Source: Pseudomonas phage BRkr. From it: 64,000 bases of DNA. The notes under the pieces were generated by a model. That model saw only the letters and a list, made by a program, of their open reading frames with translations. It was not told the DNA's origin and did no database searches. Location: sequence record LC765218.1. One strand, written 5' to 3'. This document shows, piece after piece, positions 2,038 through 63,312 of this stretch. The translations under genes and the position numbers were made by a program. Position 1 is the first letter of the stretch. Each line of letters opens with the position of its first letter.

Positions 2038-2045
2038 TGGCATAA

Positions 2046-2090
2046 AGCCCCTACCTTCGGGTAGGGGCTATGCTTATTTTTTTTTTATTT
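2046..2090. terminator. bidirectional terminator between convergent genes (CATAAAG + hairpin + T-run)
   Basis: agcccctacc-ttcg-ggtaggggct (24 nt, identical to 12820-12843) followed by tatgcttattttttttt; ggcataaag on the left gives gctttatgcc on the other strand. Confidence 0.75.
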
Positions 2091-3002
2091 TAGATAATAC
2101 ATGGCATTACTAGCAGCGTTGACTGAACTGTTACCAGAACCACCGAAACAATACAACCGTTTTCCATCGGATACAATACTCGAATTGAATACGATATTAG
2201 CTATATTCTTGAACAATACCCATTTATTTTCATCGGGTAAATATTCGTAGATATTTTTATTCGCGTTGTTATTGATTAAGGGTGCACCAGGCATCAGGAA
2301 TATCCGACCATCCATGGTGAAGCCACTACCAACCCAAGTAGTAATTGGGAAATTACTTAGCTGTACCCACGTATTTGTGGATAAAGTATATTCCCAGAAA
2401 TCATTACGATTGCTAACGCCACCGATTAAATAGAATTTACCATTTAGATAAACACTAGCAGACGATGTTCTAGCTGGCGGACGAAGTGTTGGTTGGGTTA
2501 CAGTTTCCCAAGTGTCGGTAGCGATATTATATTTCATTAACACGTCGTTTGACGGCGTGCCACCGTAAGTATAAATAAAGCCCGACTCATAGAACATATG
2601 GAAATCGTAACGAGCCACAGGTGGGGATTTCAAAACCAGTTTTTCTTTTGTTAATGGATCAATCCTAACAAAAGTGCTATTAACAGCATTACCTGGAAAT
2701 GTAGCGCCGCCGAGGTGGTACAGATATGTTCCATCGTTAACGATACCAGAGAAATATACAGACGACGGAACAGTACTGAAGTTTTGATCATACACACCAG
2801 TGGCAAGATCATACGTCATTAACGTCGAAGTGGATACACCATTTGTTCCACCTTGCGTGCCGCCACCAGCAATATATACTTTACCATTGAGTAGGGTTGC
2901 AGATGCACCTACCCTAGTAACAGGCATGTTAGGACCCTGTACAGGGATTCCTTGCCATCCAAGATTAGTTCTGACTAATGTAGCGAGTAAAGACTCGAAC
3001 AT
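2085..3002 (-). CDS. Kelch-repeat beta-propeller protein (6 blades)
   Basis: Six repeats with the Kelch signature hydrophobic-GG ... Y ... W (LNGKVYIAGG, GTYLYHLGG, GFIYTYGG, NGKFYLIGG, DGRIFLMPG, GKRLYCFGG); start chosen at ATG 3002 (MFESLL) with AGGTG RBS, 16 nt after the upstream stop. Confidence 0.65.
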   Translation of the reverse strand: MFESLLATLVRTNLGWQGIPVQGPNMPVTRVGASATLLNGKVYIAGGGTQGGTNGVSTSTLMTYDLATGVYDQNFSTVPSSVYFSGIVNDGTYLYHLGGATFPGNAVNSTFVRIDPLTKEKLVLKSPPVARYDFHMFYESGFIYTYGGTPSNDVLMKYNIATDTWETVTQPTLRPPARTSSASVYLNGKFYLIGGVSNRNDFWEYTLSTNTWVQLSNFPITTWVGSGFTMDGRIFLMPGAPLINNNANKNIYEYLPDENKWVLFKNIANIVFNSSIVSDGKRLYCFGGSGNSSVNAASNAMYYLK

Positions 3003-3018
3003 ATAAACACCTACGCCC

Positions 3019-3831
3019 TTACGGCGCCGCCATGATAGTACGAATATGGTGTCGGTTACCTTCAGGGTCATTGAAGTTCCGGGATACCTTCCGCCACTTC
3101 TTCAGTTGCTCATCATAGAGATCGTTCGCTTCAGACCATTCGTAAACTTTGTCACGGAATACACCAAGCTCTTGACCGCCAGATAACTGAGCTTCACCCA
3201 TATTGATGTAAAGTTCATTATAACAGTAGGCTTTAACAGCATATTCAACTAGTTTAGAGAATACAGGGATAGCCTGAGGACGAATATTAAGTAACTCGTC
3301 ATCATTACCCAAGCGACACGATAAATACGCGGCATGTGAAGGCAAGTAAATAAATCTAACCATTACAGTGTTATGGTTAATCAAGTTAATGTATGCAGTC
3401 TGTGCAACAGGTAGTCTTCGCGCAGAGTCTAATACTTTACGTGATTCAGCACCAATAGTCGATTCATTATAGTGCATTGCATATCCAGAGTTCTGATAAC
3501 CTAGGATACCGAAGTGAATACTAAATACCTGGACGATGGGACGCTGTTGGGTGTATTCATCCGGGATATAGTAAATAACAGTGTACGGATCGACATATTC
3601 AGACTTAACAGGAAAGTCCAGTGGAATATAAGTTTTAGTTCCACCGATCAAGTTCATGTCTGCAAAGACACGTGGTTCTAATACCGCCTCTCGAATTCTA
3701 GTTTCAAGAGAAATGACTTCACCGCAAATAGCTGCATTAGATGCAGCTTCTTGTCCAATGAAAACAGACTCTAGAATCTGACGGGGAATTCGGAAAGGTA
3801 AATCTCGAAGTGCATATTGAATAGCATTCAT
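3019..3831 (-). CDS. hypothetical protein
   Basis: 270-aa ORF; no motif recognised. Confidence 0.55.
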
Positions 3832-3941
3832 GTTTAAACGCCCCTAGGAAGCTCACCAGCGAACGAACACCCATGGAGATAATACCCAGGTGGGGTATCA
3901 TATACAACGGGGGTTCTGTGACGATTTTAAAAGATTTCAAA

Positions 3942-3951
3942 TCTATATCAT
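3942..3951 (+). promoter_or_regulatory. early-promoter-like motif TCTATATCAT
   Basis: atttcaaaTCTATATCATag, identical 20-mer to 13954-13973; 30 nt upstream of ATG 3981. Confidence 0.45.
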
Positions 3952-4389: not shown

Positions 4390-5409
4390 ATGTCGTCCAA
4401 ACGGTTTGTAGTGCTTGAGATTAACCCACAGGTAGATGTCCTGTATACATATCTCGAACACTTTACCAAAAGCAATCCGCATTTGGGTCTACCGCGCCCG
4501 ACTCGTAACACCGCGATTCAACTGGTGTTCCTTACAGTCAAAGAAATCTTGACTAGTCGAAGTGCATTCGAAACAGAGATTGACTATGAGGTACATAAAG
4601 CAGGTGCCCTATTTAATTCTCCTCCAGGCAAATTAGATGAAAAACAACTGGAGGTTTATAAGATCTTTGCTAGTGATGTTATCTGGGAAGGCGTTACGAT
4701 TGAAATCGATAATCAATTGGAACACCACATTGATCGACGCACCTATACCGAATGGAAACCAGTCTGCATTGGTAACCTTATTGGGCTTGCTGAAGGTGAA
4801 GATCATAGAATCCAAGAATACTATCGCCTGACCGATCAGCATAATGATGACAGCCATGCCGAGATTGCATTGAACTGCACTTCTCTAGTGTCGTATCTGC
4901 ATGGTGAATTCATGCGTACATTTGGAGCCGTAATGCGAGATCCAAATACGTTGACCCGTGCAATTGCAATGATGGGTAAACATCGTACACCTGAACGAGT
5001 TCAGAAAGTAATTGATTTCCTGAATAATCCCAACAGGGCCATGGCAGCAGTGTTCTTGGATACACTGACAACTATGTATCCAATGATAACCCTTGATCCC
5101 ATTTGTCCTCAAGTGAACGATGATTTGTTCGCACTTGTTGGTATTGCTAACATGGAGGAATTCAAACAAAATTACGTGCGTAAAGTTATCACGGCTTTCG
5201 GCCTGAGTTACTTCTCGTCGTATGTTAAACGGGATAAGAAATACACGCTTGAATACAGTTCTAGCCACATTCTCGCCATATACGAAATGAAAGGGATCAG
5301 TCGTACGGAGAAAGAAATGATGGAGCTTGTTGCATCGTTCCTTCGTAACGATTATCTTCCCCCAGAACAACGGGCTATTGCAGAACGTTGGTATTTGGAA
5401 AATAACTAA
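4390..5409 (+). CDS. hypothetical protein
   Basis: 339 aa, GGAG RBS 7 nt upstream; ends at hairpin 5416-5431. Confidence 0.6.
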   Translation: MSSKRFVVLEINPQVDVLYTYLEHFTKSNPHLGLPRPTRNTAIQLVFLTVKEILTSRSAFETEIDYEVHKAGALFNSPPGKLDEKQLEVYKIFASDVIWEGVTIEIDNQLEHHIDRRTYTEWKPVCIGNLIGLAEGEDHRIQEYYRLTDQHNDDSHAEIALNCTSLVSYLHGEFMRTFGAVMRDPNTLTRAIAMMGKHRTPERVQKVIDFLNNPNRAMAAVFLDTLTTMYPMITLDPICPQVNDDLFALVGIANMEEFKQNYVRKVITAFGLSYFSSYVKRDKKYTLEYSSSHILAIYEMKGISRTEKEMMELVASFLRNDYLPPEQRAIAERWYLENN

Positions 5410-5415
5410 CATAGG

Positions 5416-5440
5416 GCCTCCGAAAGGAGGCTTTATGCCG
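5416..5440 (+). terminator. hairpin + CTTTATGCCG element
   Basis: gcctcc-gaaa-ggaggc then tttatgccgg; short U-tract. Confidence 0.5.
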
Positions 5441-8207: not shown

Positions 8208-8615
8208 ATGCCATCCATTCGTGACGTAGCAATTGGCCAGAAAATCAGTTTTGAAGTTTATCCGTCTGCACAATACGGAAACAACTTTAAGAATGTAACA
8301 CTGGCCGCATTCCTAGACGCAAATCTTGTACGTATCCTGGGTTTCGATTTAATCGCCGCTCACCAAAACGTGTATCCGACTCTCCCAGCGGGTACACCAA
8401 ACGATCCATCGCAGTACAGTTATGTACGCGTTGAATTTGAAGGTGGGCAGCACCAGTATATTGGTATTCCATGGATTCGTGAAGGAAGCGTGGTCGTCAA
8501 CAACGGTCAGAAAGCTACCTTAGTATTCCAGAATATCGATCAACGACGTTTGGAACGAATCATCGAAGCTTGCAAGATGAATAACGAAGTTCCAGATTCA
8601 GTTGTCTTGGAATAA
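8208..8615 (+). CDS. hypothetical protein
   Basis: 135 aa; followed by hairpin 8623-8640. Confidence 0.55.
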   Translation: MPSIRDVAIGQKISFEVYPSAQYGNNFKNVTLAAFLDANLVRILGFDLIAAHQNVYPTLPAGTPNDPSQYSYVRVEFEGGQHQYIGIPWIREGSVVVNNGQKATLVFQNIDQRRLERIIEACKMNNEVPDSVVLE

Positions 8616-8622
8616 ACATAGT

Positions 8623-8650
8623 GCCCTCCACTCGGAGGGCATATATGTCG
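8623..8650 (+). terminator. hairpin + ATATATGTCG element
   Basis: gccctcc-actc-ggagggc then atatatgtcg (variant of CTTTATGTCG). Confidence 0.45.
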
Positions 8651-8717
8651 TCGCGAACTTTTACCTTGTGGCACATCAATATGTGAAAGTAATTTGATGT
8701 GCTACCGCTCAATCTTT

Positions 8718-8746
8718 GGACATCCATTGGGTGTCCTAATTTTTTT
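8718..8746 (+). terminator. rho-independent terminator
   Basis: ggacatcc-att-gggtgtcc hairpin followed by taattttttt. Confidence 0.65.
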
Positions 8747-11128: not shown

Positions 11129-11155
11129 GGAGTCCTTCGGGACTCCTTTATGTCG
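11129..11155 (+). terminator. hairpin + CTTTATGTCG element
   Basis: ggagtcc-ttcg-ggactcc then tttatgtcg. Confidence 0.5.
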
Positions 11156-11176: not shown

Positions 11177-12346
11177 ATGATGTATAATTCCAATCCAACG
11201 CAAAATAAAGAAGTTGTATCTTTTCCTTTCGGTACTTACAATGTACTGGATGGTAATCTATGTGGTGAGATTGCTCAACCTGGAGCTAGCCGTTTCGCAA
11301 AGATCTGTACACTTGGCTTAGACTACCCCTATATGGAACAAGCATTACTGTTGGATTACAACATGTACTGCCATTTTGATGTTGCTCTACGTCAGGCATT
11401 CGCTCCGGAAGGCAAACTGATTACAGATTCTTACTCGGGTTATACACTTGCAGGATATCTACCGGATGAACTCCAAGAATTAGATGATCTTATCGCTAAC
11501 TTCATGAAAGAACATGAAGAACTCTCTAAGGATCAACTAGAAACTCTTTGGGCTGGTATGACCCTGGTTCGTCGTAGCTGGGTATTGCATGGTACAAGAT
11601 CGACAACTTCGCAAAGCCAAAGACTATGGACCCAGTACAATAACCTGATCAGCAAAAACGGTGAACTACCTGGTACACGACATGAGGTACTTATGAAAAA
11701 GATACCCACCTACGATACCGAATGTAATGAAATGCCAAAGTTCGATGGTATCGTTACTCCTCCTGAATGGTTGAGTATAAACGACGTTTTCACCAAGGGT
11801 TTCAAACCGGGCGAACTCCAAATCATTTCCTCTCCTGTATTGGACGACATTCCCAAAACGAATAGCCGTCTCTACATGTACAATAAACTTCGTGAACTAG
11901 GACATAACAACATCATGTTGGAATCTACTGATACTGAATCTGAAATGTCTACTGACCTTCTGGAACAACACCTGAGCAAAATGGAAACTGTTGAAGCTGA
12001 GCCGACCGAAATCGATTCGATCGAATCCCGCATGCGCACCCGCCGTAAGAAAAAGAAAGGTGCCAAGCGTTCCAAGCATATCACCAACTGTAAGTCCGGT
12101 ATGGTGAAAGCTTTGATGGGTGGATCTATTTTGGCTAAGCTGAGTCAGATTCAAACTCAGACCCAAGATGGTATTAAACGTGAGATCCTCAAGAACCATA
12201 CCTTGAGTTCTTTCGTTGAAACTGTTTCCGGCGAGGCTATCCCTGAGTATCAGAAACGTCTCCTGGATAAGTTCCAAGAGCGTGCTGATAGTAAACCCCT
12301 GAAACCTGTTGAGGAAGTCTCTGTACAGGACGGTGAACAGGTTTAA
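11177..12346 (+). CDS. hypothetical protein with a basic patch (RTRRKKKKGAKRSKH)
   Basis: 389-aa ORF; lies between a terminator/TTTATG element upstream and another downstream. Confidence 0.55.
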   Translation: MMYNSNPTQNKEVVSFPFGTYNVLDGNLCGEIAQPGASRFAKICTLGLDYPYMEQALLLDYNMYCHFDVALRQAFAPEGKLITDSYSGYTLAGYLPDELQELDDLIANFMKEHEELSKDQLETLWAGMTLVRRSWVLHGTRSTTSQSQRLWTQYNNLISKNGELPGTRHEVLMKKIPTYDTECNEMPKFDGIVTPPEWLSINDVFTKGFKPGELQIISSPVLDDIPKTNSRLYMYNKLRELGHNNIMLESTDTESEMSTDLLEQHLSKMETVEAEPTEIDSIESRMRTRRKKKKGAKRSKHITNCKSGMVKALMGGSILAKLSQIQTQTQDGIKREILKNHTLSSFVETVSGEAIPEYQKRLLDKFQERADSKPLKPVEEVSVQDGEQV

Positions 12347-12353: not shown

Positions 12354-12380
12354 GCCCAGCTTAAGCTGGGCTTTATGTCG
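12354..12380 (+). terminator. hairpin + CTTTATGTCG element
   Basis: gcccagc-ttaa-gctgggc then tttatgtcg; 9 nt before ATG 12389. Confidence 0.5.
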
Positions 12381-12388: not shown

Positions 12389-12811
12389 ATGATCCATAAC
12401 CCAAAAGTTCATGGTCCACTACTCAGGGTTAAGAGTCATTACAATTTATCTTCTAATGACTTCGTTGTGACTGGTATGGCTGCACTAGCTGTATCAGTTA
12501 GACGGCAGATCGACCCACAACACATCTCTATTTCGATAAAGAAAGATGTATGGGATAAGCTGATCGCTAAGTACCCTAACCTAAAAGCCGAAACTGTAAA
12601 GAACAGTATTCGTAATCAGCGTTACATTCGTTTGTTGTCGGATGTATATGCTGAGTGTGAAGACGTTCCATCTAAAGATATCAATTGGTATTCTGGTTAT
12701 CAGTTCCTCAAGGCTAATGTACTGAAGAAAGAACTGATCGGTCTTCGCGCTGAGGCAACTAAGAAGAAGAATCAAGAGTTCTACGATAAACTCTTGGAAC
12801 AATTCAAATAA
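12389..12811 (+). CDS. hypothetical protein
   Basis: 140 aa; GAGGT RBS; ends at bidirectional terminator 12820-12843. Confidence 0.5.
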   Translation: MIHNPKVHGPLLRVKSHYNLSSNDFVVTGMAALAVSVRRQIDPQHISISIKKDVWDKLIAKYPNLKAETVKNSIRNQRYIRLLSDVYAECEDVPSKDINWYSGYQFLKANVLKKELIGLRAEATKKKNQEFYDKLLEQFK

Positions 12812-12819
12812 CGACATAA

Positions 12820-12860
12820 AGCCCCTACCTTCGGGTAGGGGCTGTTTATTATGTTTTTTT
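12820..12860. terminator. bidirectional terminator between convergent genes
   Basis: cgacataaagcccctaccttcgggtaggggctgtttattatgttttttt; same 24-nt hairpin as 2046-2069. Confidence 0.75.
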
Positions 12861-13934
12861 CATTTCTTCAATTAGGATAGCTACATCACGACGTAGCGCT
12901 TTAACCATTTCGGTATTACCAGCGGTTTTGAAGACTTGGTCGTTGGTAGCGTCAATCAGATCGATTAATACTTCGTTCATCTGGGAACGGTCGTAACCTG
13001 GGTTCTTCTTAAGCATGGTTACTAGATACTTAATGTACGGTAGACGTGCTAAAGTGTAAGCCCATTCGTTTTGATACGTGATAGGTTCCCGAGGAATCTC
13101 CATAACTTCGAAAAGATTAGTCTTAACAATAGCAGGAGTAATCCAAGCTAGACCTTCCAGCTCTATGCCTTTAATAGAGTTCTCAAAGTTTACATTCTCT
13201 ACGAGCTTATCAACCCGTGGAGTCATATCGGTTAGATAGAAAGGATGAGATACAGGGAAATTCAAACATTTGATACCCTGTGCTTGTCGAGATAACCTAT
13301 TGAAGTAAGCAACATCTAAATAGCTCTCTACCATGTTGGGGAGGACGATACTCCCAACGAAGCGATAGGCATTCTCTAGTTGTTCTACACCACGTTGTTG
13401 TTGCCAACGTAACCAATAGCGATATTGAACTAACAGCATTGGAATGTTAACTGTGATAACACCGTAACCTTTACCAGCTGTAGTATTATTCATCATTGGA
13501 AGATTCACGTCTGTCCGGGTATGATAAAGATATTTAACTGGAGTCAGATCTCTCCAGCGCTTTCCGAGACCCTCCTTCTCGAACTTCTCATAACTGGCTA
13601 TAGCGACTTCTTCACAGTTGGGACCTAGTGTAATCCCCTTCTCATGAATCTTCCCTCTATTAATAGCTGAGGTAAGACCAAATACGCGTGATAAACCTTT
13701 AGCCTGATCTTCAACCTTCTTTGCCCAAGCGGCATCATCAATCTTCCAGTCGATGATAAAATGTTGAATCATGTTGGCGAAAATATTAGCCGAGCCAACC
13801 GCTTTGGGGGCTCGACGGTAATACGTTTTTACATCATTGATCAGTTCCCGATACGTCCTACGGAGATAGACGATCTTTGGGTCAACTGCTTGCCCTAAGC
13901 GCCGCGCTGGGGCGTCCCGGAATAGCATGTACAT
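12849..13934 (-). CDS. hypothetical protein
   Basis: 361-aa ORF convergent with 12389-12811 across a shared hairpin. Confidence 0.55.
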   Translation of the reverse strand: MYMLFRDAPARRLGQAVDPKIVYLRRTYRELINDVKTYYRRAPKAVGSANIFANMIQHFIIDWKIDDAAWAKKVEDQAKGLSRVFGLTSAINRGKIHEKGITLGPNCEEVAIASYEKFEKEGLGKRWRDLTPVKYLYHTRTDVNLPMMNNTTAGKGYGVITVNIPMLLVQYRYWLRWQQQRGVEQLENAYRFVGSIVLPNMVESYLDVAYFNRLSRQAQGIKCLNFPVSHPFYLTDMTPRVDKLVENVNFENSIKGIELEGLAWITPAIVKTNLFEVMEIPREPITYQNEWAYTLARLPYIKYLVTMLKKNPGYDRSQMNEVLIDLIDATNDQVFKTAGNTEMVKALRRDVAILIEEMKKT

Positions 13935-13963
13935 GGTTTTCGTCCATTAGAAATTATTTCAAA

Positions 13964-13973
13964 TCTATATCAT
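13964..13973 (+). promoter_or_regulatory. early-promoter-like motif TCTATATCAT
   Basis: atttcaaaTCTATATCATag, identical to 3934-3953; 43 nt upstream of ATG 14016. Confidence 0.45.
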
Positions 13974-15641: not shown

Positions 15642-15824
15642 GAAAAGAAATACTGGGGCTAGTTATTTAATACAGGAAATGACCGTGAGGTCCTGACCTG
15701 CTATTTGAGCTATGCCCCAGATCACTGCATACTGAAGTTTGAATCTTAAGGAAACAAATATGTAATACAGTATGTGAAGACTGAATGTCCTCAAATGACC
15801 TTGCTTTTATAGCGGGTCCTCCGG

Positions 15825-15863
15825 TCTATATTGTATTAAAAAAAATCTGAGATCTATATAACA
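15825..15863 (+). promoter_or_regulatory. tandem early-promoter-like motifs (TCTATATTGT at 15825-15834 and TCTATATAAC at 15854-15863)
   Basis: ggTCTATATTGTattaaaaaaaatctgagaTCTATATAACag ahead of the chmA candidate; the second copy shares the flank aaaaaat(at)ctgagatctatat with 25295-25320. Confidence 0.5.
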
Positions 15864-18165: not shown

Positions 18166-18189
18166 GTCGAGACATAATAGGAAGTAGGT

Positions 18190-47872: not shown

Positions 47873-47980
47873 TTTTGAGCTTCCTTTTTAAAACTTAAAT
47901 CACGTAGTATTAATCACCAGAGTAATCTCTCATTCGAGCTTTACTTTATGATTAATAAAACTGACGAGTAGGCCACTCTC

Positions 47981-49228: not shown

Positions 49229-49243
49229 ACAAGGTAGACCGAA

Positions 49244-49684
49244 ATGCGTACTGGTTTTGAAATTGCCCGTATCCTGAAAGAAATTAAATCCCCGACCAAC
49301 AATGATCGTCAAGCTCGCGCCATGTTTGTAGCTAACGCTGTTGGTTTCTTTGTCCAGCTTGATCCATCTCTTTCTTGTGAAGAGTTGATTGATGCACACA
49401 TGCCTATGTTGAAGAAGGTAGCTGGCCAGGTTAACGAGAATATTGCTCTCGACCTGAATCTGACTCGTGAACTCTTTAAACAAGTCATCCGTATCCGATT
49501 GGAACTGATTAACTGTGTTAGCGATCCAGCTATCATTGAAGCTGCAATGAAATCCGTTACAGCAGAAGATTATCAGACAATCGATGAAACCGCTACCGCT
49601 AACATGCTTGCCAGTCGTTTTGATTTCGCTAAGAGTCAAAATGCTATAGCCAGTGTTCTGCGTCAGCTTGAAGTAGAAGGCTAA
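49244..49684 (+). CDS. hypothetical protein
   Basis: 146-aa ORF. Confidence 0.5.
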   Translation: MRTGFEIARILKEIKSPTNNDRQARAMFVANAVGFFVQLDPSLSCEELIDAHMPMLKKVAGQVNENIALDLNLTRELFKQVIRIRLELINCVSDPAIIEAAMKSVTAEDYQTIDETATANMLASRFDFAKSQNAIASVLRQLEVEG

Positions 49685-49701
49685 TTCAGGGAGGGGTCGT
49701 C

Positions 49702-50004
49702 ATGATCGACCATACCCATGATGACTTAGTTCACCCGCGTATTACAAAAGCATACGCAAAGTCATTAATCGTAAAAGAGAAGATCATCTCTGACCCTGAA
49801 ATGTTGGTGACAGTCTGCATTACTAAATTACGTAATGGCCATCGGATTGTCACCGATGCAATTGTAGCGAATAAAGCAGCATTTGATTCTAAGCGTGGAG
49901 TTGTAGTAGCCAGGCGAAAAGCAATTGAAGAAATTATTCGTTTAGAATTGTACCTCTTACGTGACAAGCTTTACGAGCATTCTAAAGGTAATGAAAATGC
50001 ATGA
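49702..50004 (+). CDS. hypothetical protein
   Basis: 100-aa ORF; GAGGGG RBS. Confidence 0.45.
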   Translation: MIDHTHDDLVHPRITKAYAKSLIVKEKIISDPEMLVTVCITKLRNGHRIVTDAIVANKAAFDSKRGVVVARRKAIEEIIRLELYLLRDKLYEHSKGNENA

Positions 50005-51235
50005 ACACGATAACGTTCTTATTGAAGGACAACGACAGTTAGGTGAAGAGCTTGAAGCAGCTCCCGTCCGTGGAGTTCAGCTCGATCCAAATCTGCAAGA
50101 AAAGCTACATGCTGCATTGGAGCATATTAGCACGCTAGACGATCTACGTTCTACTATCCGTGCCGAAGGTGTTAGTTCGCATGATATCACAGCTCTTCGT
50201 GGTATCCATAGTTCCATGGAAGCTATTGGTTTGAATGTGCCAGTACTACCATCTCTGGAAAACTATAACGCTCTATTCACGCCCACACGTACTAGCTTGA
50301 ATCTAAAGGTTTCTAATGAAGCTATTGGTTCGGCTATTATGGCTACCATTAAAGAATGGTTCCATGTACTGGTTGACTTTATTGTAAAGACAATCCGTTG
50401 GGTTAAGTCAGTTGAGATGAATGACGAAGTGATCCAAGGTAGGATCGTTTCTATTAACGAAAAAATCGTTAAATTAGAATCCAACTGGAAAGAGATGCAA
50501 GCTTTGAACCGTTTGGGTAATCGTAATCTTGATCGTAAGTATTACGAAGCTGCCGAAGTGGTTCTACTTGATCCTAAGCTACCCCGCTCCGATATCGGCC
50601 TGTTGGCTTTTGGTGTAGATGATGATCTTCGTCGAATCCGAAATATCCAACAAGAAGCACAAAAATTTGGTGCACAACTGCTGGAGCAAATTCGACAGCT
50701 TCGTCAAGTAATGGACCGCTCTCGTTTAGAACTTGGCTTTGAATCTCATATTGGACCACGACTACAGTCTCTGGCAGAAACGCTGAAGAACATGGATAGT
50801 CAGTCTGACGATCCTAACTTCTATATCAAACACAAACGAGTTGGTATTCGTTTCTTTGAAGATACTAAACGCATGTTAAAGCGTGAGCCAATTACATATA
50901 AGTTCATCTATGAGCTCTATGGTAAATGTGCAGACGAACTGCGTAAAGTGAATCGATTTGATCTAGAAGAATCTGTTGTACCACTTCCTAAACTTCAGGC
51001 TGTTATTGCCAACGTTAACGCTGGTATTGAAGCACTGAATGACATGGTTAAGGTATTCAGCCGTATTCCTCTTTATCAGTACAAAGCTGGTGCAACATAT
51101 GCCAACTTCTTCATCAAGGCGCACGACATCGTTCGTGAGGATTTCTATGCTCATGTCGCAAGTGACGTAGCTAATGCCGCCTGGGATAAACTGATTAAGC
51201 GTTTTGAAGATATCAAACGTGAGCTTGGTATTTGA
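49991..51235 (+). CDS. member of a paralogous protein family (inner-body-like), see 59296 and 62010
   Basis: ORF 49961-51235 trimmed to ATG 49991; RTSLNLKVSNEAIGSAIMATIKEWFHVLVDFIVKTIRWV block resembles RTFNLKVKATGLEAF...AVYKKIQELLAKLIEYIKNF of 59296. Confidence 0.5.
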   Translation: MKMHEHDNVLIEGQRQLGEELEAAPVRGVQLDPNLQEKLHAALEHISTLDDLRSTIRAEGVSSHDITALRGIHSSMEAIGLNVPVLPSLENYNALFTPTRTSLNLKVSNEAIGSAIMATIKEWFHVLVDFIVKTIRWVKSVEMNDEVIQGRIVSINEKIVKLESNWKEMQALNRLGNRNLDRKYYEAAEVVLLDPKLPRSDIGLLAFGVDDDLRRIRNIQQEAQKFGAQLLEQIRQLRQVMDRSRLELGFESHIGPRLQSLAETLKNMDSQSDDPNFYIKHKRVGIRFFEDTKRMLKREPITYKFIYELYGKCADELRKVNRFDLEESVVPLPKLQAVIANVNAGIEALNDMVKVFSRIPLYQYKAGATYANFFIKAHDIVREDFYAHVASDVANAAWDKLIKRFEDIKRELGI

Positions 51236-51237
51236 CA

Positions 51238-51270
51238 ACATAAAGCCCGGCATTGAGCCGGGCTTTATGT
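51238..51270. terminator. perfect palindromic bidirectional element acataaagcccggc-attga-gccgggctttatgt
   Basis: 14-bp stem including the CATAAAG/CTTTATG arms, between convergent genes 49991-51235 and 51274-54189. Confidence 0.65.
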
Positions 51271-51273
51271 CGT

Positions 51274-54189
51274 TTAGTTATTCAGTACTTCGTGTTTAAG
51301 GAAGTTGAATTGAACGTCGTCTTCTACAGTTAACTCTTGGTTAGCAAGAACAACAAGCTTCTTACGAATCGCGAGGCGAACAGCATCATCTTCAACTGTA
51401 AGAATGGCGTAGTTATTAGTGCCACCCAAACCGAATACCTCAAGTGCCTGTACCCCGTCACCAGACGTCGCTTCAAGTTGAGCAACTGTATCAGACATCG
51501 ATACAGTCTTACGACTGATGTATTCATTAAGTACAGACTTACCGTTAGCCATAAGGCTAGGTCGAATTGTAGTATTGGTATATTCAGCTGGTTTCAGATA
51601 GAAACTAAGAGTGAATGCTTGATCGACGGAGATGGTAGCTTTCTGACCTTCACGTACGGTAACAGTAGTATCACCATAAGTGGTAGTCGGATAGAGATAC
51701 ATCTCACACATTTCAAGTAACTGTGCATCGAGGATACTGATGTCATTCTCAAGCCATGTAACGAATTCCATCGGAATTTCGACTTTGTAGTCAAGTGCCG
51801 ATTTTTCATTGGCAAAGTAGAATAGTCCATCAACCATCATTAAAGTAATTTCACGTAGACGCTTACGCGGTGCAACCAAAATAGGTTTACCGTTTGAGTC
51901 TAACATTACATCGCCTTTCTGGTGCTTGCGAACCTGATTACCTTGTGCATCCAATACCGGATCACCTTTACGATGAAGTATCTCATAATCGAGAGTACCA
52001 TCAGGTTTAATCGTTACAATGATGTTACCTGCTTCATCGCGTTTATATTCGTTTTCCTCATAGAACCACATTACATCATGTTCCCAGTGCTGATAAGACT
52101 CATCACCAAGTACAGTACGACTACGTCGCCACATTTTGGTCATGTCATAACCAAGTGTTGTAACTAGACGTTCACGGTTGACAACCATGAATTGTTGTGG
52201 CAATAGGTGGGCTTGAACCATTTCATCGATCTGGTTAGGTTGATAACCAGGTGTACTCGTATTAACAACAAGGATAGTGATATCAAACATGTTATTTAGA
52301 GTACTCGCGAAATTGTTTTGCACCTCGGAGAACATCGACATGTTAGTCGTGTAGAGCTCGTTCTTGGAATTGATGTCATGATTAGTTTTGATATCAAAAG
52401 TAAATACGCGCTCACCGTCTTCGATACCAATGAACTTACCATTAACAGAAGCCCAGCGTACTTCACCAGCTGGCTGATAGCCAATTTGAAGTACAACTTG
52501 TTCATCAGCTAGTTTCTTGAACTGCTCACCAGATTCTAAACGAACTGTAATTCGATAACCTTCATCCGTTTTAACTATATCAAAGACATCGATAGCAGCT
52601 TGTAAATTAGCTGTGTCGTTCTCACCAACAAAAATCTTTTCGGTGATTGTTGGATTGTCTAAATAGTAGGGACGAACCTCAAAATTCTCACGCGATGCAT
52701 CTAGTACGTTATGGAAAGGAGAATACACGTAACGGCCATTGTTCATCTCACGTGCAATCTGTTCGGCAGTGCTGCCTTTTAGACGAGCAATCTCAGCATC
52801 AGCAACGGTGTTAACACGACCATTATTGAACGTGTAGAGCATACTAGGTTTGATCGTTAATCGATCACCATTGTCCGCTACATGTATAGAGCCCGCCAAA
52901 GACTCCATATCGACTTTAAGTTGCGACATGGCTACACCAGCACCAGAAATAACATCAAGCGACCTCGGAGCTCCTAGACGCCTTGAAGCGAGGAACTGTC
53001 TATTCGTAATGTTATCGATATTGGATACGAGTGTATAACCACGCCGATTAACAGCGTCAGTAATTTGAACGTTAGTAATAGGTACTTGGTTTGCACCGAG
53101 TGTATTATTAATAACCTGATTACGGAGTACGTTAAAATCAACCGAATTCGCACCTCCTTCTACTCGACCACGTGCCAGAGATTGAATGAGGTTAAACGTT
53201 GTCAATGGAGACACATACGAGCTATCGTCATCAATAGAGTTCAGATAGAACTTAAACTGGTTTGCTTTATAAGCACCTAGATCGCGATCCATCTTTCCTT
53301 GGGTAGTATAGATATCGATACGGATATCACCCTGTGCCATTCGTGTGTTTGTATAGATAGTTGGAATACTCACTTGGAGTTTATTACCAATAACTTTAAA
53401 CACAACGGTCAGTTCCATTGGGTCATAGACTAAAGCCGAGTGAGTCGTTTTAAGTTCCACCCAATTATCATCTTCAGTACGGCTGATGTACGCCCGCGCA
53501 TAGAAGAACTGATCGGTGAATGTATACGATTCTTGGAAAAGACTAGATGGGTTAAGAGATTCGGTATGTGTCTTTACTGCGAACTGATAGACCGGGATGC
53601 TAAGAGAAATAACCTTACGTCGATCAATGACGAGCATAGACCATGGTACAATGTTCGTCGATAGGGTTTCCACAGGTGACTTTTTATCGAGGACATATTC
53701 GATAGTAATACCACCGTGACGCATAACCCGAATTTCAATTGGGTACTGCATCGTGAATTTAATACCAGCTGCATCAAATTCCGTTAAGCGCGGTATAACT
53801 AGTTTCTTGATACCTGTATCTCCGACGGCCACTGCTTTAGCAATAACTTCATCGTAGGCAATCAAGAAATTGAAGGTTGTTCTAGCAGGAGAAGCAAAGC
53901 GTCCAATATAGTCATCATCTGACATGTGTTTATAGAGCTCTTCACTACCCAGCGAAAGACGTGGATACAGCTGACGTCCCAATGCCTCCATTTCACCAAT
54001 TGCCATCGCGGTTTCCATGGAACCGATCTCAAGCGAGAATACAAAAGGGATAGATGCATCTGGAATATCAGCAATGACGGCTCCATTACTAGAGCCGTTC
54101 ATTTGTGTATCCAGTTCATTAAGAGCGATGGTTTGCATCAACGCTGGATTACGTCGAGCACTATACATCCGTTCTTTAAACTGACTCAT
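51274..54189 (-). CDS. large hypothetical protein (971 aa; possibly virion structural)
   Basis: Long uninterrupted ORF, translationally coupled to the upstream minus gene (10-nt spacer with GGAAA); no Walker A or polymerase motifs. Confidence 0.6.
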   Translation of the reverse strand: MSQFKERMYSARRNPALMQTIALNELDTQMNGSSNGAVIADIPDASIPFVFSLEIGSMETAMAIGEMEALGRQLYPRLSLGSEELYKHMSDDDYIGRFASPARTTFNFLIAYDEVIAKAVAVGDTGIKKLVIPRLTEFDAAGIKFTMQYPIEIRVMRHGGITIEYVLDKKSPVETLSTNIVPWSMLVIDRRKVISLSIPVYQFAVKTHTESLNPSSLFQESYTFTDQFFYARAYISRTEDDNWVELKTTHSALVYDPMELTVVFKVIGNKLQVSIPTIYTNTRMAQGDIRIDIYTTQGKMDRDLGAYKANQFKFYLNSIDDDSSYVSPLTTFNLIQSLARGRVEGGANSVDFNVLRNQVINNTLGANQVPITNVQITDAVNRRGYTLVSNIDNITNRQFLASRRLGAPRSLDVISGAGVAMSQLKVDMESLAGSIHVADNGDRLTIKPSMLYTFNNGRVNTVADAEIARLKGSTAEQIAREMNNGRYVYSPFHNVLDASRENFEVRPYYLDNPTITEKIFVGENDTANLQAAIDVFDIVKTDEGYRITVRLESGEQFKKLADEQVVLQIGYQPAGEVRWASVNGKFIGIEDGERVFTFDIKTNHDINSKNELYTTNMSMFSEVQNNFASTLNNMFDITILVVNTSTPGYQPNQIDEMVQAHLLPQQFMVVNRERLVTTLGYDMTKMWRRSRTVLGDESYQHWEHDVMWFYEENEYKRDEAGNIIVTIKPDGTLDYEILHRKGDPVLDAQGNQVRKHQKGDVMLDSNGKPILVAPRKRLREITLMMVDGLFYFANEKSALDYKVEIPMEFVTWLENDISILDAQLLEMCEMYLYPTTTYGDTTVTVREGQKATISVDQAFTLSFYLKPAEYTNTTIRPSLMANGKSVLNEYISRKTVSMSDTVAQLEATSGDGVQALEVFGLGGTNNYAILTVEDDAVRLAIRKKLVVLANQELTVEDDVQFNFLKHEVLNN

Positions 54190-59227: not shown

Positions 59228-59236
59228 TGACATATT

Positions 59237-59267
59237 GGGGAACCACACGGTTCCCCTTTATGCTATG
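59237..59267 (+). terminator. hairpin + CTTTATGCTATG element
   Basis: ggggaacc-acac-ggttcccc then tttatgctatg; the same 13-mer ccctttatgctatgt recurs at 61970. Confidence 0.5.
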
Positions 59268-59295
59268 TTATCTATTCACATGTCAGAGAATCGAA

Positions 59296-61950
59296 ATGAC
59301 TATTCACAATCTGAACAAACATCTTGGTGGTGGTAAAGCCACCTCCTCAAACGAAGCTATTGCTGATGGCGTAGCTCGCGAAGTACCAGTTGATACAGTT
59401 GATACTTCTGTAAAAGCCTTGGCCACTACCAAAGATCTACCAGAAAATCCAGAAGAAGGTGCTGTTTATCACGTTAACGGTGTTGACTGGGTATTCGTTA
59501 AAGGTGAATGGGTCACGCGTCAAGGTATTTATGGCCACGAAGATTTTGGCGATGCGCATGAACCTCTGTGGGATGGTACTGGTGAGAAACCTAATATCGA
59601 AACACAGAGAGCAGAATCTGAAGTTGTCCGAGAAAATAGTGATGAACCTGCAATCACTCCTGAGGGTACCAATGAGTCCACGGAACAGGTTGTAAGTGAA
59701 ACTGAACAAGTTGAAGAAGTAGTTGAAGAAAACGTTACTCCTGAACCTATCGTTAATCCAGCCTCTCCTAGTGAGACTATGGAAGAAGCTACTTCTGAAA
59801 CGGAAGCCGAGAGTGAGTCAGTGGTTGAACCCACCGTACATGAACAGGTAGAAGCCCATGAAGCAGCAGCTAACCCCATCGAAGAGATTGAGGAAAGCGA
59901 GACCCAGGAAGAAGAGAAACCCTCGACAGAAAACGTTGACGGGGAACCTCTAGCTCATCCCGTTGAAGAAGATAAGCCTGTTGAAGTAATGGAACCTTCT
60001 GATGTGGGTATGTGTGAAGAAACTATGTTGGCACATGATCGCATCGGTCAAGTGGCGAATAGTATCGATCAGTTGCATACAGCACAGACTGCTCTAGAAG
60101 CTTATCACGATGTCGTTAAGACTGGTCGTGTATCTAAGCAATCTGCCGCAGTACTTCATAAAGGTCTTGTTCATATTGATCGGACTTTTAATCTCAAGGT
60201 CAAAGCAACAGGACTTGAGGCATTCGATACTACTCCTCGTTCGGCAATGGAATCTGTCGATATTGATGGTGAGACTATCACTGGACGAATGAAGCAGATC
60301 GGTGGGGCAGTCTACAAAAAGATTCAAGAACTTCTCGCCAAGCTGATCGAATACATTAAGAACTTTGATCTAAAGCGTAAACAATCTGAAGCTAAAGTAG
60401 ACAAGCTGCTTTCTCAGATCAGTGATGTACCGCGCAACGCGATTCCTGAAAACGAAAAGATTAAAGTATCGAAAGCTAAGTTCTTCTATGCTGGCGGTAA
60501 ATTCGTTGGCACTGATACAAGTGCAGAAGTAGCTGTTATTGATCTAGCTGTATCTGCTGCCATGGCAATGCAGTCTAACGTTGTATTCCTTGGTCAACAA
60601 CTTGCTAAGATGGAAGCGACTAGTGATGGTGTGAACGAGTTCAGAAATGTTATTGAAACACGGCTGAGTCAGAACCGTGATCACGTTGAGAAAGATCTTC
60701 CAGGTGGTGGTAAAATCATTCGAGAAGGCCATGCCCTTATTCTTGAGCGTGGTGAAGATGAACATGCAGGTGAAGAACTAGATGCTCTTTCTCGTACTGA
60801 TATCGAGAAAGCTTTGAAGTCACTTCAGAAGTTCTATCAGAATGCAGGTAAGTCTGACCGTATTTCTCGAATTGTAGATTCTGCTCGTACTAAGTCACAA
60901 GAAGCAATTAAAGCTGCACGTACTGGTGGTGATGAACGTTATGTTCAAGAGCTACAACAACTTTACGTTACAGCTGTAGCAGATATGATCAAAGAGATGA
61001 ATCTCCAGATGGTAACTGCTCTTGTTACTTATACGTCTTCTGGTAAAGCCATGTATCTTGAAGCATGCCTTGAGAACCTTAAAGTGCAAGGTGCTGGCAT
61101 GGAGTCTCACGATCCGTTCGTATTCTCTAATGAAGGCCTCTTTACCGAAATCGGTCACTTCTTCAACGCTATGATTCATGGGCGTAAAGAAGATCTTAAG
61201 CCAGAGCAGTACAATGCGGTTAAGAGCAAGATCTCTAAAACGTTTGGTGATCCGAATTGGCTGAAGAATCGTCGTTTCATTGAAGGCGATATTAAGTTCA
61301 AAGGAGATCCTTCTCTTGGGGATAACTTCAAACAAGTAATCGCTAAGGCAGTTGGTCAACTTAACCAGGCTGCCCGTGGTAACGCAGCTGTGTTTACCCG
61401 AGCTGCTAACTCCGTTAAGCCATATACTGACTTCCTAATCAAGATGGAATATCGTAACCATCCTGAGAAGACTCAGAAAATGTACGACGGCATGCCAAGC
61501 TTTGATAAGAATAAGTTCAAACCCGTTAAATATAACAGTGGTATGGCACATTCTTACGTAGACGTTACTCTTCCTGCAATGACTCCAGAACAGGTAGCCT
61601 CAGCCGCAGATGAGATCATTAAAGCTATTGATTATATCACTGGCTATTGGAAAACATCTATGGGCAAAGAGTGGTGGGATACTTTCAACGTTGAGAATGA
61701 GTACGGTCTATTTGGTCGATTTATTCCAGCGCACATGGAAGGTTCCGGTAAGTACACGGATGTTATCCGTAACATTGCTACGTACACTAAAGGTGAAGAC
61801 CAGAAATGGTGTGTTAAGCTTGCCAGTAAGATTGCTGAATTCGCTGATGATGGCGAAGCCACATTCTTCAAAGAAGGCGGTGGTCAGTGGGAATTCTATT
61901 TCACTTACATCCGCGGTCTAATCAACTGGATGGATGCTTCCACCCGTTAA
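59296..61950 (+). CDS. paralogous-family protein with a long acidic Glu/Thr/Pro-rich N-terminal region (inner-body-like)
   Basis: In-frame ATG 59296 chosen over 59224 because a terminator hairpin and TTTATG element lie between them; residues ~130-260 are about 35 percent Glu; conserved block SAAVLHKGLVHIDRTFNLKVKATGLEAF. Confidence 0.55.
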   Translation: MTIHNLNKHLGGGKATSSNEAIADGVAREVPVDTVDTSVKALATTKDLPENPEEGAVYHVNGVDWVFVKGEWVTRQGIYGHEDFGDAHEPLWDGTGEKPNIETQRAESEVVRENSDEPAITPEGTNESTEQVVSETEQVEEVVEENVTPEPIVNPASPSETMEEATSETEAESESVVEPTVHEQVEAHEAAANPIEEIEESETQEEEKPSTENVDGEPLAHPVEEDKPVEVMEPSDVGMCEETMLAHDRIGQVANSIDQLHTAQTALEAYHDVVKTGRVSKQSAAVLHKGLVHIDRTFNLKVKATGLEAFDTTPRSAMESVDIDGETITGRMKQIGGAVYKKIQELLAKLIEYIKNFDLKRKQSEAKVDKLLSQISDVPRNAIPENEKIKVSKAKFFYAGGKFVGTDTSAEVAVIDLAVSAAMAMQSNVVFLGQQLAKMEATSDGVNEFRNVIETRLSQNRDHVEKDLPGGGKIIREGHALILERGEDEHAGEELDALSRTDIEKALKSLQKFYQNAGKSDRISRIVDSARTKSQEAIKAARTGGDERYVQELQQLYVTAVADMIKEMNLQMVTALVTYTSSGKAMYLEACLENLKVQGAGMESHDPFVFSNEGLFTEIGHFFNAMIHGRKEDLKPEQYNAVKSKISKTFGDPNWLKNRRFIEGDIKFKGDPSLGDNFKQVIAKAVGQLNQAARGNAAVFTRAANSVKPYTDFLIKMEYRNHPEKTQKMYDGMPSFDKNKFKPVKYNSGMAHSYVDVTLPAMTPEQVASAADEIIKAIDYITGYWKTSMGKEWWDTFNVENEYGLFGRFIPAHMEGSGKYTDVIRNIATYTKGEDQKWCVKLASKIAEFADDGEATFFKEGGGQWEFYFTYIRGLINWMDASTR

Positions 61951-61955
61951 AGCAT

Positions 61956-61983
61956 GGGGAGCTTCGGCTCCCTTTATGCTATG
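61956..61983 (+). terminator. hairpin + CTTTATGCTATG element
   Basis: ggggagc-ttcg-gctcccc (6 bp plus one G:T wobble) then tttatgctatg. Confidence 0.5.
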
Positions 61984-62009
61984 TAAACTAATTCTATTTC
62001 GAGGCTAAC

Positions 62010-63272
62010 ATGCTTGACACTGAAATGCCCTGTACTGTAAATACAGAACCTGCTGAAACAATCATCGAACCAGCGGAAGATATCCAGGTAGAGATTGAAG
62101 ACGTATCTGATTTCCAAAACGATGTAGCTGAACAAGAAGTTGTAGAATCCGAAGACCTCGAAGGTGTCGCTGAATCTCTAGAAGCTTATTCTCAACTCCT
62201 TAAACAAGCTGGTGACAAAGGTATCACTAAACAATCTGCTGCAATGATGCGAATTGGCATGAAACAGATTGATGCGCGGCTCAATATCAAACGAGAAGCA
62301 CTTAGCCTGGAAGGCTTTAAAACGTGCACTATGCGCGATGGACTACAAACCACTACTGTTTCCATGGAAGATGTCAAAGAGCGCGTTAAAGAGCTTGGTA
62401 AGCGCATTGTAGAGTTCATTGCTAGGCTGATTGAACGAGCGAAGGCGATTTACCAAAAACTGGCTGGTCCTAAAGTTAAAACACAAAAGGCAGCACAACA
62501 ACTAATTGCTGCTTCTCGTGCCTTCCCTGCTTATCCTGGCGGTAAGATGCGTGGCTCTGTTCCAGAAAATGTTTCGGAAGATCTTAAGAAGAAAGCTGCT
62601 GAGATTAAAGAGCGTAAAGGTGATATCGACGAAGAATCTAAGAAGATTCGTATTGAAGATACCACTAACATTGTTGCCGATGGAGAGAACACTTACGACA
62701 CCATCGCAACTGAAAAGGCTTACGCTGTATTCCTCTACGATCGTCTTCCCAAAGCACTAATGTCCGTGATGAAATTTGCCAAAGATAATGTTGGTAAAGG
62801 CGATGCTTCTGAATATATTGAAAGTGTTCTAGATCACACCCACAGTGAAATGACAAAAGTTGTTCAAGCCTCTATCGGTCAAGATTTCCTACCCGGTAGT
62901 ATCCGTCTTTCGTGGGATATGGAAAACCTAGGCTTTAAGATTATTCATGGTACTGACTCGAATGGACCTATTGAGGTTGATCTCCGTCCAGCAAGTGCTA
63001 TCACTAAATTTGCTCAGGAATGTGAAACTGTTCTAGCTGTCATGACCGATGATGCATCTGTAAATCGGCACAATGGTGAACTTCAACAGCTATCGGACTC
63101 CCTCGGTGCAAAACTAGTGACTGAGCTGGACGACCCAGCTGTATTTGGTGCCATCACAAGTCTAATCACTAAGATCCGTTCTCTCGATGTTCTTGCTCAA
63201 GTTGAACGTCAGATTGTTACCTCTGTTTTTGCGAAACTAGCTATCGCTAAACACGAGCTAACTAAGTACTAA
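62010..63272 (+). CDS. paralogous-family protein (inner-body-like)
   Basis: GAGG RBS; acidic N-terminus; SAAMMRIGMKQIDARLNIKREALSLEGF...RVKELGKRIVEFIARLIERAK parallels the 59296 block. Confidence 0.55.
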   Translation: MLDTEMPCTVNTEPAETIIEPAEDIQVEIEDVSDFQNDVAEQEVVESEDLEGVAESLEAYSQLLKQAGDKGITKQSAAMMRIGMKQIDARLNIKREALSLEGFKTCTMRDGLQTTTVSMEDVKERVKELGKRIVEFIARLIERAKAIYQKLAGPKVKTQKAAQQLIAASRAFPAYPGGKMRGSVPENVSEDLKKKAAEIKERKGDIDEESKKIRIEDTTNIVADGENTYDTIATEKAYAVFLYDRLPKALMSVMKFAKDNVGKGDASEYIESVLDHTHSEMTKVVQASIGQDFLPGSIRLSWDMENLGFKIIHGTDSNGPIEVDLRPASAITKFAQECETVLAVMTDDASVNRHNGELQQLSDSLGAKLVTELDDPAVFGAITSLITKIRSLDVLAQVERQIVTSVFAKLAIAKHELTKY

Positions 63273-63279
63273 CATAAAT

Positions 63280-63312
63280 GCCCTCCCTATGGAGGGCTTT
63301 ATGACTGCTATG
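63280..63312 (+). terminator. hairpin + CTTTATGACTGCTATG element (aacataaa left flank)
   Basis: aacataaat-gccctcc-ctat-ggagggc-tttatgactgctatg. Confidence 0.5.

Follow-up and report, generated by a model that had tools for sequence, protein, structure and literature searches.

The closest described counterparts of the hairpin elements that we analysed in 64,000 nucleotides (nt) of Pseudomonas phage BRkr (LC765218.1; hereafter the window) are the intrinsic terminators of phage phiKZ. An ONT-cappable-seq map of the phiKZ transcripts (ONT, Oxford Nanopore Technologies; Putzeys et al. 2024, Microlife, PMC10914365) gave 61 intrinsic terminators that share the motif 5'-BCCYCCCCHWWDGGGRRGGBYTTATKYYGT-3', a stem-loop followed by a TTAT region, as well as six bidirectional terminator regions between convergent genes. 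In phage 201phi2-1 (PMC11512511) a motif A (n=59) "strongly resembles" the phiKZ motif by the authors' description, and its co-occurrence with a motif B elongates the hairpin. A reporter assay in uninfected P. chlororaphis showed activity for eight 201phi2-1 terminators, picked so that all motif classes were represented; those with two motifs were the strongest.

The window elements are very probably factor-independent terminators of this conserved type, a reading supported by their position after stop codons, their strand orientation, the compensatory changes in their stems and the match to the phiKZ and 201phi2-1 motifs. The kind of terminator predicted here is thus already known from those two phages and is now seen in a further genus, Pawinskivirus. 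An earlier note on this DNA had proposed a phage-specific terminator, which agrees with the motif of the 61 mapped phiKZ 3' ends and with that of 201phi2-1. Like the phiKZ terminators, the window elements combine a GC stem-loop, a short loop and the tail (Y)TTATK-YYGT, lie between genes, occur as two-way copies at convergent genes and carry the 5' mirror ACRRCATAA. They differ in belonging to a phage of another genus, in their more varied stems (GCCCAGC, GGAGTCC, GCCCCTACC and GGGGAACC, as against CCYCCCC in the phiKZ consensus), in a tail that is more often TTTATG-YCG than the TTATG-YTG of phiKZ, and in being known from sequence alone. The likeness to 201phi2-1 follows its authors' description: the hairpin elongated by motifs A and B resembles the behaviour of the CATAAAG...CTTTATG extension in the window, while the host (P. 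chlororaphis) and the genus (Serwervirus) are different. Canonical bidirectional intrinsic terminators also have a GC hairpin, an A-rich 5' flank and a U-rich 3' flank between convergent genes, and the host polymerase suffices for the 201phi2-1 elements in the reporter assay. The canonical U-tract is a generic run of about 6–8 U, whereas the window elements have UUUAU with an invariant A and G plus four semi-conserved bases.

Anatomy, placement and conservation of the hairpin elements

We enumerated the elements in the 64-kb window of the ~300-kb genome. The words CATAAAG/CTTTATG were present in 28 copies, against 10.05 ± 2.81 expected from dinucleotide shuffles, and none of 100 shuffles reached 28; an intergenic GC hairpin directly precedes 14 of the 28 CTTTATG copies. 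A strict scan (perfect GC stem of at least 5 base pairs (bp), loop of 3–8 nt, TT(T)ATG at most 2 nt from the stem) recovered 15 distinct strand-specific copies, corresponding to 29 overlapping pattern hits, while the shuffles (n=100) averaged 0.26 hits and never gave more than 3. Stems with one mismatch added two copies on the minus strand, at 29884 and 45529. Our curated set comprised 23 intergenic GC-core hairpins, with GC-rich stems of 6–10 bp, a loop usually of 4 nt and a core free energy (dG) of -8.5 to -21.3 kcal/mol across the 22 short-loop hairpins, the long-loop hairpin at 25241–25271 being outside the sample of this range. TATG begins at most 5 nt from the stem on at least one strand in 16 of the 23 hairpins (random 12-mer background, 0.017) and on both strands in nine of them. 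Six hairpins were tailless (1469, 8718, 18129, 20790, 34484 and 42697), most of them with a T-run 3–14 nt further downstream.

Across 17 copies the tail reads TATG, then Y (C in eight, T in eight, A in one), then C (11) or T (6), then G (11) and T (11), which we write as TTTATG-Y-Y-G-T, often with a preceding C. The exact word TTATKYYGT had 11 matches in the window, nine of them at hairpins, and was by itself only marginally enriched (6.0 expected), so that the signal lies in its association with hairpins. TATG was retained where the T-run was altered: AATATG at 45555 and at 59231 on the minus strand, CTATGC at 2068 and 37697. The element as a whole tends towards a full palindrome, ACRRCATAAAG-stem-loop-stem-CTTTATGYYGT. 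We also considered the 5' and 3' flanks as one extended stem and rejected this, as their variable positions showed no covariation and are not mutually complementary (e.g. at 51235 and 2038); each tail is therefore treated as its own signal and not as half of a long stem.

No Rfam family matched any of the elements at the gathering threshold across the whole window. A generic promoter and terminator scan (at least five T in eight) recovered only some of them, because it requires a long T-run and the U-tract here is only UUUAU. Sigma-70-like sites were rarer than expected in the window, in keeping with a phage that makes no use of the host polymerase.

Gene boundaries were taken from the HHBS36_1 annotation transferred onto the window, where 72 out of 72 complete HHBS36_1 genes fall exactly on open frames. 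All 23 hairpins lie in gaps between well-supported genes, and 20 of them begin 5–17 nt past a stop codon. Directly after the stem, the strict tail TT(T)ATG is present in 14 of the 29 orientations with a gene ending upstream on that strand and in none of the 17 others; weaker antisense TATG tails (CCTATG, GTTATG, AATATG, ATTTATG) were found at six of these 17 co-directional sites, and many co-directional copies have the 3' tail only. Each of the six well-supported convergent pairs carries one hairpin, with TATG at most 5 nt from the stem on both strands in five. At most co-directional tailed sites, among them seven strict-tail elements, the hairpin lies 17–68 nt from the next start codon; the distance is ~39 nt at 59237, if the start is at 59296, and 155 nt at 8622, and the six sites between convergent genes have no next gene. 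The repeated hairpin-plus-TTTATG elements of the earlier note are therefore real, with coordinates right within 1 nt: its mirror CATAAAG at convergent pairs agrees with these counts, as do a frequency above chance and a bias in strand and position, which it had set as checks. It went too far in giving the tail to almost every intergenic hairpin, and its distance of 17–50 nt to the next start is too narrow.

The elements with a tail on at least one strand, all predicted terminators apart from the long-loop hairpin, are the following:

2038–2084, both strands: two-way terminator between 1807–2037 (plus) and 2085–3071 (minus); core 2047–2068, dG -18.5 kcal/mol; minus-strand tail CTTTATGCC, plus-strand tail CTATGC and then a T-run.
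5410–5440, plus strand: terminator after gene 4390–5409; CATAGG, hairpin 5416–5431, then TTTATGCCG.
8617–8650, plus strand: terminator after gene 8208–8615; CATAG, hairpin 8622–8641, then TATATGTCG; within a doubtful annotated open reading frame (ORF) of 31 amino acids.
11129–11155, plus strand: terminator; hairpin 11129–11146, then TTTATGTCG; gene 11177 lies 30 nt on.
12354–12380, plus strand: terminator after gene 11177–12346; hairpin 12354–12371, then TTTATGTCG; gene 12389 lies 17 nt on.
12811–12853, both strands: two-way terminator between 12389–12811 (plus) and 12849–13934 (minus); core 12821–12842; minus-strand tail TTTATGTCGT, plus-strand tail TGTTTATTATG and then a T-run.
20291–20330, not assigned to one strand: terminator after gene 19677–20291; core 20302–20321; plus-strand tail variant TTTATAACG, antisense GTTTATGTTGT.
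25241–25276, plus strand: long-loop hairpin after gene 24484–25230; AGCATCTCT...AGAGATGCT, then GTATG; an early-promoter-like site lies 38 nt downstream.
29880–29913, not assigned to one strand: terminator between 28559–29878 (plus) and 29921–30283 (minus); core 29890–29913 with one mismatch; minus-strand tail TTTATGCCGT, plus strand without the motif.
36065–36091, plus strand: terminator after gene 34977–36059; hairpin 36065–36082, then the variant TTTATACCG (TTTATGCC in HPP-Temi).
37666–37710, both strands: two-way terminator between 37425–37664 (plus) and 37714–38109 (minus); core 37676–37697; a near-copy of 2038–2084 that differs by one compensated stem pair.
44185–44219, plus strand: terminator between two virion-protein genes; CATAAC, hairpin 44191–44210, then TTTATGCCG.
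45525–45564, both strands: two-way terminator between 44257–45525 (plus) and 45564–45851 (minus); core 45535–45554; minus-strand tail TTTATGCCGT, plus-strand tail AATATGTTGT.
51235–51273, both strands: two-way terminator between 49991–51235 (plus) and 51274–54189 (minus); near-perfect 39-nt palindrome in the order ACAACATAAAG, GCCCGGC, attga, GCCGGGC, CTTTATGTCGT.
59231–59262, plus strand: terminator after the gp92-like internal-head-protein gene; CATATT, hairpin 59237–59256, then TTTATG.
61957–61978, plus strand: terminator after gene 59296–61950; hairpin 61957–61972, then TTTATG.
63273–63303, plus strand: terminator after gene 62010–63272; CATAAAT, hairpin 63280–63297, then TTTATG.

We compared the elements with those of related phages. 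Positions 40000–52000 of the window were 99.5–99.7% identical over their full length to phages phiLBG22, phiHQ, PS119XW, PA1C and HHBS36_1, and 83% identical to HPP-Temi; the matches of PhiPA3 and Noxifer were limited to a few hundred bases, and phiKZ had almost no megablast-level DNA identity in the region tested. PS119XW is the type species of Pawinskivirus, family Chimalliviridae, and the relatives PA1C and PS119XW bear out the phiKZ-like phage that had been suggested from the DNA. HPP-Temi carries the same tail motif, and in two of its elements the stem has changed with full compensation: at 45535 the window stem GCCACACC/GGTGGGGC is replaced wholesale by GCCCGGCC/GCCGGGC, and at 37676 GCTCCTACC/GGTAGGAGC corresponds to GCCCTCTCC/GGAGAGGGC, with the CATAAAG and TATG tails unchanged at both sites. 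At 51238 the left AAAG has become ATTG in HPP-Temi and CATA is retained. By these alignments the orthologous elements are under selection for structure plus flank. The same elements were read directly in phiKZ DNA, with the 5' mirror (e.g. acatagGCCCTCCCttcgGGGAGGGCTTTATGTTGT after the major head gene), and were found in PhiPA3 by pattern search and direct sequence reading. The fixed tail is kept across at least four genera: Phikzvirus, Serwervirus, Miltoncavirus and Pawinskivirus.

Late promoters and the TATG of the tail

The late promoter of phiKZ is TATG with G as +1, which is needed and insufficient for initiation (Yakunina et al. 2015, PMC4666361); there is no conservation after the G (PMC4666361), and gp123 binds TATG on the non-template strand via a pocket (PMC12809450). 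The earlier note had correctly named TATG as the late-promoter core of the non-virion RNA polymerase (nvRNAP), and had proposed that the terminators overlap such promoters or are immediately followed by them. We compared this with phiKZ data from the bioRxiv tables of Putzeys et al., which gave all 149 start sites and the terminators T001–T076 of 133.

Late sites ending in TATG were 50 of the 66 in phiKZ. None of the 149 starts, each with 50 nt upstream, had a GC hairpin ending within 11 nt, and none of these mapped sites started at a terminator's own TATG; 64 of the 66 late promoters were without a hairpin ending within 15 nt of the start. The terminator tail was visible, unused, 6–40 nt upstream of 13 starts: four early (P001, P017, P028, P099), one middle (P023), seven late (P006, P016, P049, P054, P075, P139, P143) and one untyped (P041). 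The nearest cases were P049, reading ...GAGGAACCcttcGGGTTCCTCTTATGCTATGT, and P075, reading ...GGAAGGCTTTATAATGCTATGT, with starts 12 and 14 nt after the stem end, at a second TATG that lies 5–7 nt beyond that of the terminator. P049 is situated between gp93 and gp94, two internal-head-protein genes. Its start (94330) falls 1 nt away from the second TATG's G, whereas the distance to the first, 6 nt, exceeds the 2-nt precision stated for the method. At P075 the 3' end of terminator T064 (145649) is separated from the start (145659) by 10 nt. The reference late promoter P119L (P063) has an A+T-rich upstream region and no hairpin.

The window tails contain TATG on the non-template strand by definition, which alone is insufficient, and their surroundings are not those of a late promoter: phiKZ late promoters have A+T-rich DNA upstream and nothing conserved after the G, whereas the terminator TATG has a GC hairpin before it and Y-Y-G-T after it. 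Orientation gives the same picture: of the 19 sense-oriented TATG tails, 10 have ahead of them a convergent gene's 3' end and no gene to transcribe, and such tails occur in 10 of the 12 orientations at convergent pairs vs 9 of the 17 with a gene downstream. From these comparisons terminator and promoter appear to be separate sequences, with a promoter placed downstream at a few sites. Three late-promoter cores are predicted in the window:

59262–59268, plus strand: predicted late-promoter core GCTATGT; TATG at 59264–59267, straight after the tail; conserved in HPP-Temi.
61978–61984, plus strand: predicted late-promoter core GCTATGT; TATG at 61980–61983, 27 nt before the start 62010.
63318–63327, plus strand: predicted late-promoter core TTCTATGTTT; TATG at 63321–63324, 23 nt before the ATG of gene 63347.

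These late-promoter-like cores (GCTATGT, TTCTATGT) adjoin three window terminators and match phiKZ P049, P075, P063 (P119L) and P050. In particular, the hairpin-CTTTATGCTATGT arrangement at 59256 and 61972, before two internal-head paralogues, has the layout of P049 and P075, and PhiPA3 has the layout of a hairpin and then a second TATG twice. The site at 61978 shares TTATGCTATGTAA with P049. The TTCTATGTTT site matches P050 (...TAATTCTATG) and PhiPA3 (...CCTATGTTTAAC) and is conserved in HPP-Temi, where the nearer TATG, at 63309, is lost. GCTATGT was not enriched in the window (6 vs 7.1 expected), and what supports the promoter calls at 59262 and 61978 is therefore their position and their homology to mapped phiKZ sites, not statistics. 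The proposal of a promoter overlapping the terminator is thus supported neither by the phiKZ starts nor by the orientation of the tails, and that of a promoter immediately following it holds for a few sites, such as 59262 and 61978 with their separate GCTATGT, and not in general.

Explanations of the hairpin and its fixed tail

If the elements are factor-independent terminators, the nascent RNA would fold into the GC hairpin, the short UUUAU stretch would weaken the RNA–DNA hybrid, and the phage polymerases would release the transcript within a few nt of the tail G. The mirror ACRRCATAAAG on the 5' side would give the opposite strand the same tail at convergent genes, so that one hairpin could stop transcription from both directions; the mirror is often kept in co-directional gaps, where it would lengthen the stem and block antisense transcripts. 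The promoter of the next unit would be a separate downstream sequence, and at the internal-head-protein paralogues a late core, GCTATGT or TTCTATGT, would follow 0–18 nt past the tail, which would be why TATG appears there twice or more. Transcript 3' ends have been shown to map to such elements in phiKZ and 201phi2-1, and the window copies would be expected to do likewise; the 12 phiKZ terminators that we placed on the genome, from the part of the table covering T001–T076, had their 3' ends no more than 3 nt to either side of the tail G, and estimates based on sequence agreed with this. The G-Y-Y-G-T part of the tail may also have a role.

Several points weigh against this explanation. Termination in this phage is a prediction from homology and anatomy. 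The U-tract is short (UUUAU), and the textbook model of a hairpin plus U-tract leaves the conserved A, G and Y-Y-G-T unexplained. Some tail positions coincide with the mapped phiKZ RNA 3' ends or lie past them, and something beyond the RNA hairpin must therefore read it. ONT 3' ends may reflect exonuclease trimming back to a stable hairpin instead of the release site, and the phiKZ hairpin upstream of P049 has no termination site nearby among T001–T076 of the 133.

The conserved tail could instead be a polymerase-specific pause and release signal, with the pocket of the gp123 homologue catching the non-template TATG during elongation, halting the enzyme where the short U-tract ends and so making the hairpin effective. 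This would suit the retention of TATG where the T-run is altered (45555, the minus strand at 59231, 2068 and 37697, and ATTG in HPP-Temi at 51238), the clustering of the phiKZ 3' ends among T001–T076 at most 3 nt away from the G, and the conservation of Y-Y-G-T where the RNA ends or past it, a sign that DNA or polymerase is the level at which the signal acts. We hold it to be unlikely, as the same tail is present at phiKZ T011 and T015 before early promoters, where it probably ends transcripts of the virion polymerase with its other promoter type, as the 201phi2-1 terminators, picked to represent the motif classes, work with the host polymerase in uninfected cells, and as the 3' ends among T001–T076 have no fixed register, falling from -3 to +3 from the G within the precision of the method. 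A related idea, that TATG plus Y-Y-G-T is perhaps read by the polymerase, with the gp123-type pocket as the candidate reader, the four-base word being a start signal in A+T-rich DNA and a pause-release signal after a hairpin, we regard as equally doubtful; if true, it would explain the fixed tail, the conservation up to or past the RNA 3' end and the insufficiency of TATG for initiation. The elements have also been read as a fused promoter, in which the tail TATG is the nvRNAP late promoter, the terminator overlaps it and two-way copies fire on both strands. TATG with G at +1 is indeed the needed core of phiKZ late promoters and is bound by gp123 (PMC4666361, PMC12809450), seven strict-tail co-directional elements lie 17–68 nt upstream of a start codon, and three elements precede virion or internal-head genes. 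We nevertheless find a fused promoter very unlikely: no start among the 149 of phiKZ has a GC hairpin within 11 nt and P049 and P075 use the second TATG, 13 start regions have an unused terminator tail 6–40 nt upstream, P119L is A+T-rich upstream without a hairpin, late promoters are unconserved after the G where the tail is conserved, and the window tails are at least as frequent in orientations that face a convergent 3' end as in those with a gene downstream (10/12 vs 9/17).

The hairpins might also serve mainly in RNA stability or processing, as exonuclease blocks or nuclease sites and not as sites of release. Stable 3' hairpins protect mRNAs in general, and ONT 3' ends cannot tell termination from trimming. 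Such a function as the main one seems highly improbable, given that the 201phi2-1 reporter showed lowered downstream expression, i.e. termination, and that the paired mirror tails and the strict orientation to the ending gene fit termination; the two roles are not exclusive. Least credible of all is that the elements act as DNA palindromes, whether as sites of a dimeric protein, cruciforms or small mobile repeats. The symmetric flanks ACRRCATAAAG ... CTTTATGYYGT and the near-duplicates at 2038, 12811 and 37666 would suit a palindrome. However, the stems vary between copies and change with compensation, so that structure and not sequence is selected, the variable flank positions are not complementary (51235, 2038), many co-directional copies have a 3' tail only, and the placement is always just past stop codons. 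As terminators, the elements would provide a reliable, sequence-only marker of the ends of transcription units for Pawinskivirus and other Pseudomonas chimalliviruses. Terminator and late promoter share the word TATG and yet are physically separate, which was not pointed out in the literature searched and bears on what makes TATG a promoter for the non-virion polymerase.

Other features of the window

The hairpins without the tail motif, also predicted to be terminators except where only a hairpin is named, were as follows:

1469–1500, plus strand: tailless terminator hairpin; tail position reads TTTATTTTGTTTTT.
8718–8746, plus strand: motif-less terminator hairpin; tail position reads TAATTTTTTT.
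18129–18165, plus strand: motif-less terminator hairpin; TTCTATCTCC, then T7; nearly identical to phiKZ terminator T025, it closes the conserved element after the nuclear-shell gene.
20790–20830, plus strand: motif-less terminator hairpin; T-run further downstream.
34484–34524, plus strand: motif-less terminator hairpin; T-run further downstream.
42697–42730, plus strand: motif-less, A+T-richer hairpin upstream of the virion-protein gene 42753.

A second type of tail, in which 8–14 nt of mixed sequence separate the hairpin from a run of 6–10 T, was found at 2069–2084, 12843–12860, 18149–18165, 20810–20830, 34506–34524 and 37698–37713, and also in phiKZ terminators T019, T025, T033 and T034. 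The stems of 2038–2084, 12811–12853 and 37666–37710 are nearly alike (AGCCCCTACCttcgGGTAGGGGCT), and two of these three elements share a flank of ~50 nt that includes a long A/T run. Near-alike stems and flank, one compensated pair apart, suggest duplication or conversion between intergenic regions.

The gene content of the window is that of a nucleus-forming jumbo phage with its own multisubunit polymerases (Chimalliviridae): a nuclear-shell protein (15932–17797), several RNA polymerase beta-subunit fragments, two DNA polymerase genes and virion proteins, together with a row of internal-head-protein paralogues syntenic with phiKZ gp87–gp97. A tRNA scan found no tRNAs.

A non-coding stretch of ~370 nt (17798–18165) separates the nuclear-shell (chimallin) gene from the RNA polymerase beta-subunit gene that comes next, and has counterparts in phiKZ (47529–47922; L007 2130–2524) and PhiPA3 (L008 288–803). 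It is 84–87% identical to all Phikzvirus genomes, vs 65–75% for the flanking genes, and folds better than 200 out of 200 shuffles (z = -4.1). An alignment of seven sequences, PhiPA3 among them, shows compensatory double changes at 15 base pairs. Indels of 1–2 nt exclude conserved small ORFs, and a terminator that hardly varies (phiKZ T025) closes the stretch directly ahead of the polymerase gene's ribosome-binding site. Rfam gave no match, either at the gathering threshold over the whole window or at a permissive E-value on 17760–18200, and the papers searched on the phiKZ transcriptome and on Grad-seq were not found to mention its counterpart. The stretch may act as a structured 3' untranslated region, as a leader or attenuator, or as a non-coding RNA that is stable.

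Five intergenic sites on the plus strand (3941–3948, 13963–13970, 15852–15859, 25310–25317 and 30314–30321) carry, after an A-rich tract, the word ATCTATAT(C/A/T)A. This word is also that of the phiKZ early (virion-polymerase) promoter, ...GATCTATATTAC, and its copies lie 29–73 nt upstream of genes 3981, 14016, 15932 (nuclear shell), 25353 and 30357 (RNA polymerase beta subunit). Judged by this match, the five ATCTATAT copies are probably early promoters of this phage.

The terminators also bear on annotation, as several small ORFs and one start codon in the deposited relatives overlap them. The HHBS36_1 annotation places the start of the gene for the 896-amino-acid internal head protein on the terminator-tail ATG (59260). 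A later ATG in the same frame, at 59296 (within 59260–59298), has a GAGA ribosome-binding site like that of its paralogues, lies past the predicted transcription start and is the annotated start in HPP-Temi; the deposited start at 59260 is, from its sequence context, probably wrong. The small annotated ORFs 1482–1574, 8602–8697, 15663–15794, 17781–17888 and 18033–18221 encode 30–62 amino acids, mostly with GTG or TTG starts, and overlap terminator hairpins or the conserved non-coding element; 17781–17888 and 18033–18221 have no counterpart in the phiKZ RefSeq record. All five are probably spurious gene calls.

Finally, two genes differ in organization from HPP-Temi. The DNA polymerase gene is intact in the window (45929–47872) and split by an HNH endonuclease insertion in HPP-Temi (L004 23722–27387), and the helicase is annotated as two genes 14 nt apart in the window lineage (34525–36059) and as one 511-amino-acid gene in HPP-Temi (L004 12898–14433).

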